DNA from: a virus
Lineage: Duplodnaviria; Heunggongvirae; Uroviricota; Caudoviricetes
Reading direction: 5' to 3' (one strand)
DNA: 64,000 nt
IMG/VR virus record: IMGVR_UViG_3300021431_000080
Location: 68,460-132,459 of that record
The notes below the pieces were generated by a model, which had not been told where the DNA came from, searched no databases, and saw nothing but the letters and a program-made list of their open reading frames with translations. Position numbers and translations under genes: made by a program. Positions 21,624-21,823 of this stretch are shown one piece after another. Position 1 is the first letter of the stretch. Every line of letters starts with the position of its first letter.

Positions 21624-21823
21624 TGGTAGGTAGCGAAGTGGTTAAACGCGGCGGACTGTAATGGTGAGTAAACACGCTAAAAATCGATTCTGTATTGGTC
21701 GAGAGGTCGAAGACGTAGGGTGACACCGGAGTAAGCTAAAAACTTGCAGACGTTGGTTCGAATCCAACATACAGAACAATCCGCTCCCTTTTGGGTTCGG
21801 GGGTTCAAATCCCTCCCTGCCAA
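21624..21823 (+). tRNA. tRNA-Tyr(GTA), type II, interrupted by a ~117-nt intervening sequence at 37/38
   Basis: 5' part TGGTAGG-TA-GCG..CGC-G-GCGGA-CTGTAA at 21624-21661. 3' part A-TCCGC, extra arm CCC-TTTT-GGG, T-arm GGGGGTTCAAATCCCTC and acceptor CCTGCCA at 21779-21823. The insert 21662-21778 carries its own T-arm/acceptor minihelix (TCTGTAT...GTTGGTTCGAATCCAAC-ATACAGA). Confidence 0.5.

Follow-up and report, generated by a model that had tools for sequence, protein, structure and literature searches.

A discrete 117-nt insert carrying a tRNA-like module interrupts the anticodon loop of a phage tRNA-Tyr gene and may represent a new class of small tRNA introns

In a 64,000-nucleotide (nt) stretch of phage DNA (IMG/VR virus record IMGVR_UViG_3300021431_000080, positions 68,460 to 132,459; this whole stretch is called the window here) the gene of a bacterial-type tRNA-Tyr(GUA) with a long variable arm, located at 21624-21823, is split by 117 nt in its anticodon loop. 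The insert is a discrete, optional element with exact boundaries, and the tRNA-Tyr gene around it is intact. By comparison with further genes it is a member of a class of small, mobile inserts which is widespread in the tRNA genes of phages and apparently has not been catalogued before. The interpretation that we place first, with confidence about evenly divided for and against it, is that the insert is a mobile intron of a new class, without an open reading frame (ORF), which resides in the anticodon loops of phage tRNAs and would be removed from the RNA by cutting and re-ligation.

Results

The interrupted tRNA-Tyr gene

In the split gene the acceptor strand TGGTAGG (21624-21630) pairs with CCTGCCA (21816-21822) and is followed by the discriminator A21823, the anticodon stem is formed by GCGGA (21650-21654) and TCCGC (21780-21784), and the T arm of the tRNA reads GGGGG-TTCAAAT-CCCTC (21799-21815). 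The split point falls within the anticodon loop, at CTGTA|AA. When the insert was taken out in silico, the joined exons, with the junction GGACUGUA|AAUCCGCUCC (GGACUGUA-AAUCCGC in RNA letters), were called tRNA-Tyr(gta) by ARAGORN. Furthermore, continuous tRNA-Tyr genes of Synechococcus phages (cyanophages) align with both halves, as two pieces. The interrupted gene itself is missed by ARAGORN without the intron option and by Rfam at the gathering threshold. Its parts are the following.

21624..21660, plus strand: 5' exon of tRNA-Tyr(GUA), with the acceptor 5' strand, a 3-bp D arm, the 5' strand of the anticodon stem and the loop bases CUGUA (nt 32-36); 37/37 identical to the relative L129
21661..21777 (= 21662-21778), plus strand: the 117-nt insert (intron), precisely missing from L129 and present in the relative L128
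21662..21679, plus strand: 5' leader hairpin UGGUG/CGCUA with the loop AGUAAACA, minimal form GUG/CAC with the loop AGUAAA; a fold predicted from the Tyr copy itself rather than from covariation
21688..21776, plus strand: tRNA-like module, consisting of an 8-bp stem, a D-like region, a hairpin resembling an anticodon arm (GTAAG-CTAAAAA-CTTGC, 21731-21747) and a T arm; indicated by ARAGORN, by a partial Rfam match and by its recurrence in the class
21777, plus strand: a single unpaired C, the last base of the insert, directly 5' of the 3' exon
21778..21823, plus strand: 3' exon of tRNA-Tyr, with A37 and A38, the 3' strand of the anticodon stem, the long variable arm, the T arm, the acceptor 3' strand and the discriminator A; 46/46 identical to L129

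Since A21661 and A21778 are the same base, the insert can be written as 21661-21777 (site 36/37) or as 21662-21778 (site 37/38), and the sequence of this gene by itself allows the two equally. We assigned the site to 36/37 because all 22 inserts of the class described below end in an unpaired C after an 8-bp stem. A first-pass annotation, made from the letters of the window, had reported a tRNA-Tyr(GTA) interrupted by an insert of 117 nt, and this is borne out by the layout, by the ARAGORN call on the spliced sequence and by the allele of L129. The same annotation had placed the insert at the canonical position 37/38, with splicing of the archaeal/eukaryal kind implied; this part did not hold, as the site is ambiguous and becomes 36/37 by the terminal-C rule, the sister inserts are found at 33/34 to 36/37, and a bulge-helix-bulge can be formed in 1 of the 22 cases.

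Presence and absence in related phages

Relatives were located via a 141-amino-acid ORF upstream of tRNA-Tyr (19903-20328), and two contigs, L128 and L129, were compared with the window. The orthologous tRNA-Tyr gene of L129 (~89% DNA identity to the window) is uninterrupted, the deletion falling exactly at CTGTA^AATCCGC, and its exons are identical to those of the window at 83/83 positions. In L128 (~87% identity) the insert is kept with no mismatch (0/116) and one 1-nt deletion; the exons differ at 3/83 positions and the upstream spacer at 55 of 359 aligned positions. At the ~15% divergence of this spacer the chance of finding no mismatch in 116 nt is about 1e-8, and the comparison suggests either that the insert is under strong constraint or that it was recently transferred. 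An identical interrupted tRNA-Tyr gene was found in a second assembly (L004), L128 being the third and diverged one. The interrupted gene thus occurs in at least three independent assemblies, which rules out an assembly artefact.

It was also observed that the 120 nt preceding tRNA-Tyr (21500-21623) are far better kept in L128 and L129 than the spacer in front of them, where a promoter or another structured RNA is possible.

Structure of the insert

The insert can be divided into a leader of 27 nt, a fully paired (8/8) stem with the sequences enclosed by it, and the terminal C. The leader hairpin is followed by an A-rich linker (AAAAUCGA, 21680-21687), and analogous hairpins are present in the leaders of an interrupted tRNA-Leu of the window and of another interrupted tRNA-Tyr, on contig L048. 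The 8-bp stem, TTCTGTAT (21688-21695) with ATACAGAA (21769-21776), directly abuts and encloses a T arm, GTTGG-TTCGAAT-CCAAC (21752-21768), so that the insert has a trait of RNase P and RNase Z substrates, namely an acceptor-like stem coaxial with a 5-bp T stem that carries the loop TTCGAAT. The internal acceptor/T-arm module of the first-pass annotation is therefore real: ARAGORN labels 21689-21777 as tRNA-like, and the Rfam tRNA model aligns to 21712-21768 with 23.2 bits, under its threshold of 29. Compared with the tRNAs of the surrounding tRNA island, the module is not a recent copy of any of them, and no Rfam family other than tRNA matches any insert, permissive thresholds included. The fold energy is no better than that of shuffled sequences (z = -0.49 for the insert and -1.38 for its tRNA-like part); the support for the structure is comparative, not thermodynamic.

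Sister inserts and the tRNA set of the window

With introns allowed, ARAGORN revealed three more interrupted genes in the window, the inserts of which are given here.

24794..24876, plus strand: family-1 insert of 83 nt in tRNA-Asn(GUU), gene 24761-24916, site 34/35
30219..30301, plus strand: family-1 insert of 83 nt in tRNA-Arg(UCU), gene 30185-30340, site 34/35; the orthologues in L029, L030 and L031 carry other inserts at other sites
44552..44627, plus strand: family-2 insert of 76 nt in tRNA-Leu(UAA), gene 44517-44673, site 34/35; of the inserts, the one most closely related to that of tRNA-Tyr

The Asn and Arg inserts have a common 5' element, N-UACAGAGU-(5-bp stem)-ACUGGGAC-(stem), with 2 matches in the window against 0 expected. 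The Leu insert had been connected earlier with the Tyr insert through a contiguous TGAGTAAAC. The two are related, but the contiguous motif is not shared, for the Leu insert has TGAGAGTAAAC at this place; the common part is GAGTAAAC plus AAATCG, a motif so short that it is not above chance alone.

The uninterrupted tRNAs of the window serve 18 amino acids, and the only two missing, Tyr and Asn, are provided by interrupted genes alone. Likewise, the anticodons GUA, GUU, UCU and UAA come from interrupted genes only. Neither ARAGORN nor Rfam called a second tRNA-Tyr within the 64-kb window, in agreement with the previous statement that the island has no other Tyr tRNA, and the continuous tRNA-Tyr that was named at that time as evidence against splicing is absent from the window and was seen only in the related phage L129. 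The phage probably depends on this gene with its intron-like insert and the tRNA-like module therein.

A class of 22 inserts

Inserts from the window, its relatives, IMG/VR, metagenomes and one contig of a metagenome-assembled genome (MAG) were delimited by requiring a 7-nt anticodon loop in the joined exons, and 22 members were obtained. A degenerate pattern of the family-1 5' element was used as the search query, by which the invariance of this element is partly imposed. Its matches are true interrupted tRNA genes in IMG/VR (L032, L033, L034), in metagenomes (L039, L046/L092, L048, L052, L063, L075, L077, L085, L094) and on a 360-kb "Bacilli MAG" contig with 12 tRNAs in 8 kb (L112); all other matches are chance occurrences in coding DNA. 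Neighbouring genes gave members with other leaders, namely L032 Pro, L039 Thr, L112 Lys and L048 Tyr. The last one (L048, 513-677) is a tRNA-Tyr(GUA) which has a 78-nt insert at the same site as the Tyr gene of the window and a Tyr-type leader, composed of AU, the hairpin AAUGG-AAAUAA-CCAUU and an A-rich linker.

The joined exons were recognized by ARAGORN as canonical tRNAs in 22/22 cases (Tyr, Asn, Arg, Leu, Val, Pro, Met, Thr, Lys and Asp), and every one of the 22 inserts ends in a C preceded by a strand of the stem. One architecture is common to all: a leader with a small hairpin, the stem and the single unpaired C. Stem pairing is 8/8 in 20 members, 7/8 and 6/8 in the remaining two; the 5' strand of the stem begins 25-32 nt from the 5' end of the insert, and at a distance of 0-1 nt from the stem 18/22 members have a hairpin of 4-5 bp with a T-loop-like loop of 7 nt. 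Stem and T-like hairpin together give a stack of 12-13 layers, as in an acceptor/T minihelix. The other properties vary: the insertion site is 33/34, 34/35, 35/36 or 36/37, inserts of 61 to 145 nt occur, the 5' exon may end in A, C, G or U, and the sequence of the 8-bp stem differs in every member. Many insert interiors contain a GG-rich loop (GGGAGR), which could act as D loop at a tRNA elbow.

In family 1 the leader hairpin covaries: 97% of the cells are paired, both sides have changed in 3 of the 5 pairs, and none of 500 shuffles (0/500) reaches the observed score. The unpaired motifs of this family are N|UACAGRGU at the 5' splice site, the hairpin loop ACUGNGAC and often GGGAGR.

The exons appear to be under selection as tRNAs. 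Joined Arg(UCU) exons from five interrupted genes fold into a cloverleaf in which compensatory changes were found in 16/21 pairs, no pair (0) was broken and the anticodon loop was invariant; judged from such sequence comparisons, the interrupted tRNA-Tyr is likewise evolving as a functional tRNA. The removal of the inserts from the RNA can be argued from the compensatory changes in the exons, the replacement of alleles described in the next section and the completion of the tRNA set by the interrupted genes.

No description of such inserts was found in the literature searched, which is weak evidence of novelty as most subscription journals were outside its coverage. Exact or near-exact patterns of the Tyr and Leu inserts gave chance matches in coding DNA only in IMG/VR, a BLAST search of 50,697 phage records with the interrupted genes of Tyr and Asn as queries returned exon matches only, and an automated scan for the class on ARAGORN splice guesses recovered the known members and added none.

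Several sequences beside the class were also recorded. A family-1 5' element, TACAGAGT-GGTGC-ACTGGGAC-GCACC, is located outside any tRNA, ~90 nt upstream of the 5S rRNA gene of a Porphyromonadaceae MAG (L106 3698-3724 = L055 2373-2399). Longer inserts of 192 and 205 nt, which may be group I introns, are present in tRNA-Ser(UGA) (L034 3999-4277) and tRNA-Leu(UAA) (L016, complement of 40244-40534). Short inserts (37-72 nt) that have no tRNA-like module were called in L017 (2180-2299), L020 (15071-15216 and 17307-17428), L025 (8449-8570) and L034 (4345-4478), where the splice assignments of ARAGORN are doubtful.

Turnover of the inserts

In the strain variants L004 and L005 (99.3-99.6% identical to the window), the interrupted tRNA-Asn gene of the window (24761-24916) is replaced as a whole by a different, diverged tRNA-Asn that is uninterrupted, with conserved flanks on both sides; the two alleles have an unusual T loop (AUCGU..) in common. 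tRNA-Pro(UGG) is continuous in the window (21167-21243) and carries an 82-nt insert in L129 (2903-3060), with the leader UUACAGUU and a hairpin with the loop CGCUGGGAA; the same variant is found at L032 5910-6064. For tRNA-Arg(UCU), which adjoins a 180-amino-acid gene, three different inserts were seen: at 34/35 in the window, one of family 1 at 35/36 in L031, and one of a third family at 36/37 in L029/L030. L030 and L128 were obtained from one sample; should both derive from the same phage, this phage has the exact Tyr insert of the window, yet a different Arg insert. The inserts turn over among phages that are 87-99% identical, and they do so beside homing-endonuclease genes.

Genomic context

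The window is the tRNA island of a very large phage, with 35 tRNA genes and a transfer-messenger RNA (tmRNA) called by ARAGORN between 21.1 and 44.3 kb, with which Rfam agrees. It recurs with 100% identity within a 286-kb metagenomic contig (L002), and its DnaK is closest (~50% identity) to those of 480-735-kb "huge phages". Dense tRNA arrays are present in the huge phages that come nearest by their DnaK (LR745206, LR756501); the "intron" calls of ARAGORN there were rejected as mostly artefacts joining adjacent tRNAs.

Free-standing HNH/GIY-YIG endonuclease genes lie among the tRNAs of the window (23687-24517, 34461-35390, 40454-41095), and HNH homologues begin directly downstream of interrupted or uninterrupted tRNA genes in L032 (~6072), L039 (~458) and L129 (~3482). 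Genes of RNA-repair type encode a HAD_SAK_2 ("Swiss-army-knife") phosphatase and a calcineurin-type metallophosphoesterase (10887-11360 and 43520-44131); homologues of the latter adjoin tRNA genes in L017, L032 and L075. A Ro60/TROVE+vWA protein (Rsr-like) is also encoded (region 41324-41703 and 41805-43448). Its gene is preceded by tRNA-like fragments, one with a Lys-like anticodon arm but no acceptor pairing and one with a T arm at ~41612-41630, and the same layout is seen in L017 (9933-11950). These fragments may be a phage Y-RNA (YrlA-like) partner of the protein.

Additional tRNA-like RNAs with acceptor and T arms and aberrant interiors, not called by the programs, were noticed at 22051-22130, 22640-22780, 33520-33690, 33935-34050 and 34315-34400. 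The motif TGAAGCAGATRGGATGTGCTACT recurs in 33520-33690 and in L032 5188-5316, which points to a conserved RNA, and the element at 34315-34400 reaches 37 bits against the tRNA-Sec model, below threshold. A tRNA with the anticodon CUA (26055-26126, "Pyl" according to ARAGORN) may be an amber suppressor; another is located at L034 3180-3252. A TnpB-type transposase (phrog_506) and an Acb3-like inhibitor of the CBASS (cyclic-oligonucleotide-based antiphage signalling system) defence are encoded at 3781-4977 and 49045-49938. A 231-amino-acid ORF (12099-12794), which recurs near interrupted tRNAs in L034 and L063, gave no match in Pfam or PDB and a single-sequence AlphaFold model with a pLDDT (predicted local distance difference test) of 42.8, and no useful relatives were found for a 430-amino-acid protein of the island.

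Discussion

A possible removal pathway

If the insert is an intron, transcription of the gene would give a precursor that still contains it. The tRNA body would keep both ends of the anticodon loop together in this precursor, and the loop would be turned into a three-way junction, at which the anticodon stem meets the leader hairpin and the 8-bp stem. The two splice sites would then be situated in the single-stranded joints of this junction and would be set by the insert rather than by the exon sequence. The tRNA-like module, as a mimic of the acceptor/T-arm stack and the elbow, would probably recruit the enzymes of tRNA end processing: a cut of RNase Z type after the unpaired C would create the 3' splice site, RNase P would cut at the 5' end of the 8-bp stem, and the family-specific leader would set the 5' cut. 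The nicked anticodon loop could finally be sealed by an RNA ligase of the tRNA-repair type, as large phages commonly encode. We favour this cut-and-ligate route because the constant part of the class mimics the very surface, the acceptor/T-arm stack with the elbow, that is recognised by the CCA-adding enzyme as well as by RNase P and RNase Z. The excised insert would end like a tRNA with C74, and the CCA-adding enzyme could complete it to CCA; such a "genomic tag" could stabilise the excised insert or serve its mobility.

Cleavage by RNase P and RNase Z yields 3'-OH and 5'-phosphate ends, and these are not substrates of RtcB. The combination of RNase P, RNase Z and RtcB that was suggested by the first-pass annotation is for this reason chemically inconsistent. 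Large phages commonly carry Rnl or RtcB ligases together with end-healing enzymes (PMC7824862).

At the DNA level the insert might be spread and lost by recombination between co-infecting phages, possibly aided by the free-standing HNH and GIY-YIG genes; we infer this kind of spread, which is also that of other phage introns without an ORF, because gain, loss and whole-gene replacement beside HNH genes fit it.

Several observations weigh against the cut-and-ligate intron. The predicted cut lies after position 74 of the tRNA-like module and the stack has 8+5 layers instead of 7+5, although RNase Z normally cuts after position 73 and a C at 74 is reported to disfavour this enzyme. One member (L075) has a plain 11-bp hairpin where the T arm is expected, and an exact 5' cut at a distance of 25-32 nt in front of the stem cannot be attributed to any known nuclease. 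The strictly conserved unpaired motifs UACAG, CUGNGA and GGGAGA of family 1 resemble a catalytic or ligand-binding core more than a passive leader. Additionally, genes for a ligase, for RNase Z or for a splicing endonuclease were not found in the 64 kb of the window, and the zero divergence of the L128 insert may mean recent transfer and not constraint.

Taken more broadly, with confidence falling somewhat short of even, the inserts can be proposed as a third kind of tRNA intron, specific to phages and with a removal chemistry of its own, which would be either a new small ribozyme or the end-processing enzymes combined with a repair ligase.

Alternative explanations

The most serious competitor of the cut-and-ligate intron, to which we give roughly one chance in four as a doubtful but not negligible reading, is that the insert is a new small ribozyme which is self-splicing or self-cleaving at both ends. 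Its catalytic core would be made up of the leader and of the three-way junction at which this leader meets the 8-bp stem and the anticodon stem. In family 1 such a ribozyme would have the UACAG/CUGNGA/GGGAGA core at the three-way junction, and its sites of cutting or splicing would be N|N-UACAG and the position 3' of the unpaired C. If it were self-cleaving only, the exons would be left with 2',3'-cyclic phosphate and 5'-OH ends, to be joined by RtcB or through reversal of the cleavage, and the tRNA-like module would be a scaffold or serve stability. The position of the conserved unpaired motifs right at the 5' splice site is consistent with this, as is their occurrence in copies found independently of the search pattern (the window, L031 and the Pro variants of L032 and L129), although much of the family-1 conservation stems from that pattern. 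CAG and CUG could form a pseudoknot; both of its strands are invariant, however, and no covariation signal is possible. The splice sites are set by the insert alone, as the adjacent exon bases vary freely and the site shifts within the loop, a three-way junction that is cut behind one unpaired C recalls the layout of the hammerhead, and no gene for a splicing enzyme was found in the window. On the other hand, inserts of 61-145 nt with interchangeable leader families and interiors point to independent modules and not to one folded core, the Tyr-type (family 2) leader is almost devoid of conserved sequence, and no known ribozyme model matches: covariance models of hammerhead, HDV-like (hepatitis delta virus), twister, pistol, hatchet and hairpin ribozymes gave no match at permissive E-values. 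Checks by hand for a hammerhead-like fold, an HDV-like P1 and an internal-guide pairing between leader and exon revealed nothing general.

It is improbable, in our judgement, that the insert is not spliced at all and that the genes are disabled tRNA genes or carriers of a tRNA-like small RNA (released by RNase P/RNase Z) and/or of tRNA halves, for instance decoys against tRNA-targeting nucleases. Within the class the tRNA-like module varies least, and ordinary tRNA processing would set it free; Tyr and Asn tRNAs are in any event provided by the host, and tRNA-Tyr is a known target of defence systems (PMC13096335). Nevertheless, all pairs of the cloverleaf are kept by compensatory change and the anticodon loop is intact once the exons are joined, the same loci are taken by an interrupted allele in some phages and by an uninterrupted one in others, and the four interrupted genes give exactly those anticodons that are absent from an otherwise near-complete tRNA set.

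An intron of the archaeal/eukaryal type at the canonical position, with a bulge-helix-bulge, a splicing endonuclease and joining by RtcB, is disfavoured to the point of being very improbable. The Tyr insert can be written at 37/38, and the loop CUGUA can pair with UACAG of the insert, but this pairing was found in the Tyr gene only and was rejected as a general rule. In a scripted test the canonical motif (two 3-nt bulges and a 4-bp helix) fitted 1/22 inserts, the Tyr insert having 3/4 central and 1/3 outer pairs; the sister inserts are at 33/34 to 36/37, the tmRNA and the bacterial-type, long-arm tRNA-Tyr point to a bacterial host, and no EndA/Sen-like Pfam domain was present among the ~50 window ORFs scanned.

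A group I intron, its degenerate remnant or an assembly artefact is effectively refuted. Group I introns have a minimum length of roughly 200 nt, which is not reached by the 117 nt here or by the 61-145 nt of the class; no group I model of Rfam matched 21400-22100 (E<=10), the whole island (E<=5) or six other loci of the class (E<=1); and the Tyr 5' exon ends in A, not U, while all 22 inserts end in C, not G. These points outweigh the inserts of ~200 nt, possibly group I, in other phage tRNAs (L034, L016) and the fact that group I introns are the only ones known in bacterial and phage tRNA genes, where they occupy the anticodon loop (PMC13011429). A DNA transposon or an IS200/IS605-type miniature element (PATE) was rejected as well: the 5' flanks differ (CTGTA, GACTG, GTCTT, GATTT and others), and the delimited inserts have neither terminal inverted repeats nor a duplication past the 1-nt ambiguity.

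Significance

The class implies either a new catalytic RNA or a protein-dependent route of tRNA splicing in bacteria, and the latter, if true, would provide the first physiological splicing substrate, a natural one, for the bacterial and phage RNA ligases (Rnl, RtcB). Default tRNA finders miss such genes, and the tRNA repertoires of phages, with the conclusions on codon usage, recoding and anti-defence drawn from them, are consequently incomplete. It should be added that the inserts interrupt exactly the loop that is attacked by anticodon nucleases; tRNA-Tyr, Asn, Lys and Arg are known targets of defence systems or toxins (see also PMC13096335). An element of 60-120 nt that would be removed precisely from any anticodon loop could also serve conditional expression of tRNAs or suppressors.

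Comparison with known systems

Group I introns are found in tRNA genes such as cyanobacterial tRNA-Leu(UAA), Azoarcus tRNA-Ile and tRNA-Asn/Asp of Patescibacteria (PMC13011429, PMC13168695). The phage inserts resemble them in their position in the anticodon loop of a bacterial-type tRNA, in their sporadic occurrence and mobility, and in that the host gene is overlooked by standard tRNA finders. The Leu(UAA) member at 34/35 also shares its site with the classical intron. The inserts are, however, 61-145 nt in length instead of at least 200 nt, and have a tRNA-like module in place of the P3-P9 core, the 5'-exon U and the terminal G.

The introns of archaeal and eukaryal tRNAs depend on a bulge-helix-bulge, on the EndA/Sen endonuclease and on the RtcB or Trl1 ligase (PMC4090602, PMC3400036). 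Like these, the phage inserts are short, ORF-less and variable in sequence, with a conserved structural rule and structure-defined sites, and a cut-and-ligate logic is possible for both; the context is nevertheless that of phages and bacteria, and the bulge-helix-bulge is replaced by a rule of 8-bp stem, T arm and unpaired C. Archaeal introns can carry functional small RNAs.

Mimics of the acceptor/T-arm that set RNA ends are known as tRNA-like processing signals from the t-elements of plant mitochondria, the mascRNA of MALAT1 and the tRNA-like domain of tmRNA. As in these cases, the mimic of the phage inserts is embedded in a larger transcript and would be recognised by RNase P/RNase Z, and many insert interiors are reduced to a GG-containing loop and a T arm as in the tRNA-like domain of tmRNA. 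The known signals, unlike the inserts, mark the ends of transcripts; none is inside a tRNA anticodon loop, and their flanks are not rejoined.

In the anticodon-loop repair of phage T4 the cut made by PrrC is healed by Pnkp and sealed by Rnl1, and jumbo phages have sets of RNA-repair genes (PMC7824862). The removal proposed here would be similar, as a break in the anticodon loop of a folded tRNA would be sealed by a phage ligase, and HAD_SAK_2, metallophosphoesterase and Ro60 genes are present in the window; T4, however, mends damage and not an encoded insert, and no ligase gene was seen in the window.

"Collaborative homing" is the use of a neighbouring endonuclease gene by ORF-less introns. 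Free-standing homing endonucleases in phage tRNA clusters include SegB of T4 (PMC13096335). Unlike in these systems, HNH genes also stand beside uninterrupted alleles (L004, L129). In other respects the phage inserts resemble such systems: HNH/GIY-YIG genes are located among the tRNAs, whole alleles of tRNA-Asn and tRNA-Pro are replaced between conserved flanks, and the insert itself is ORF-less.

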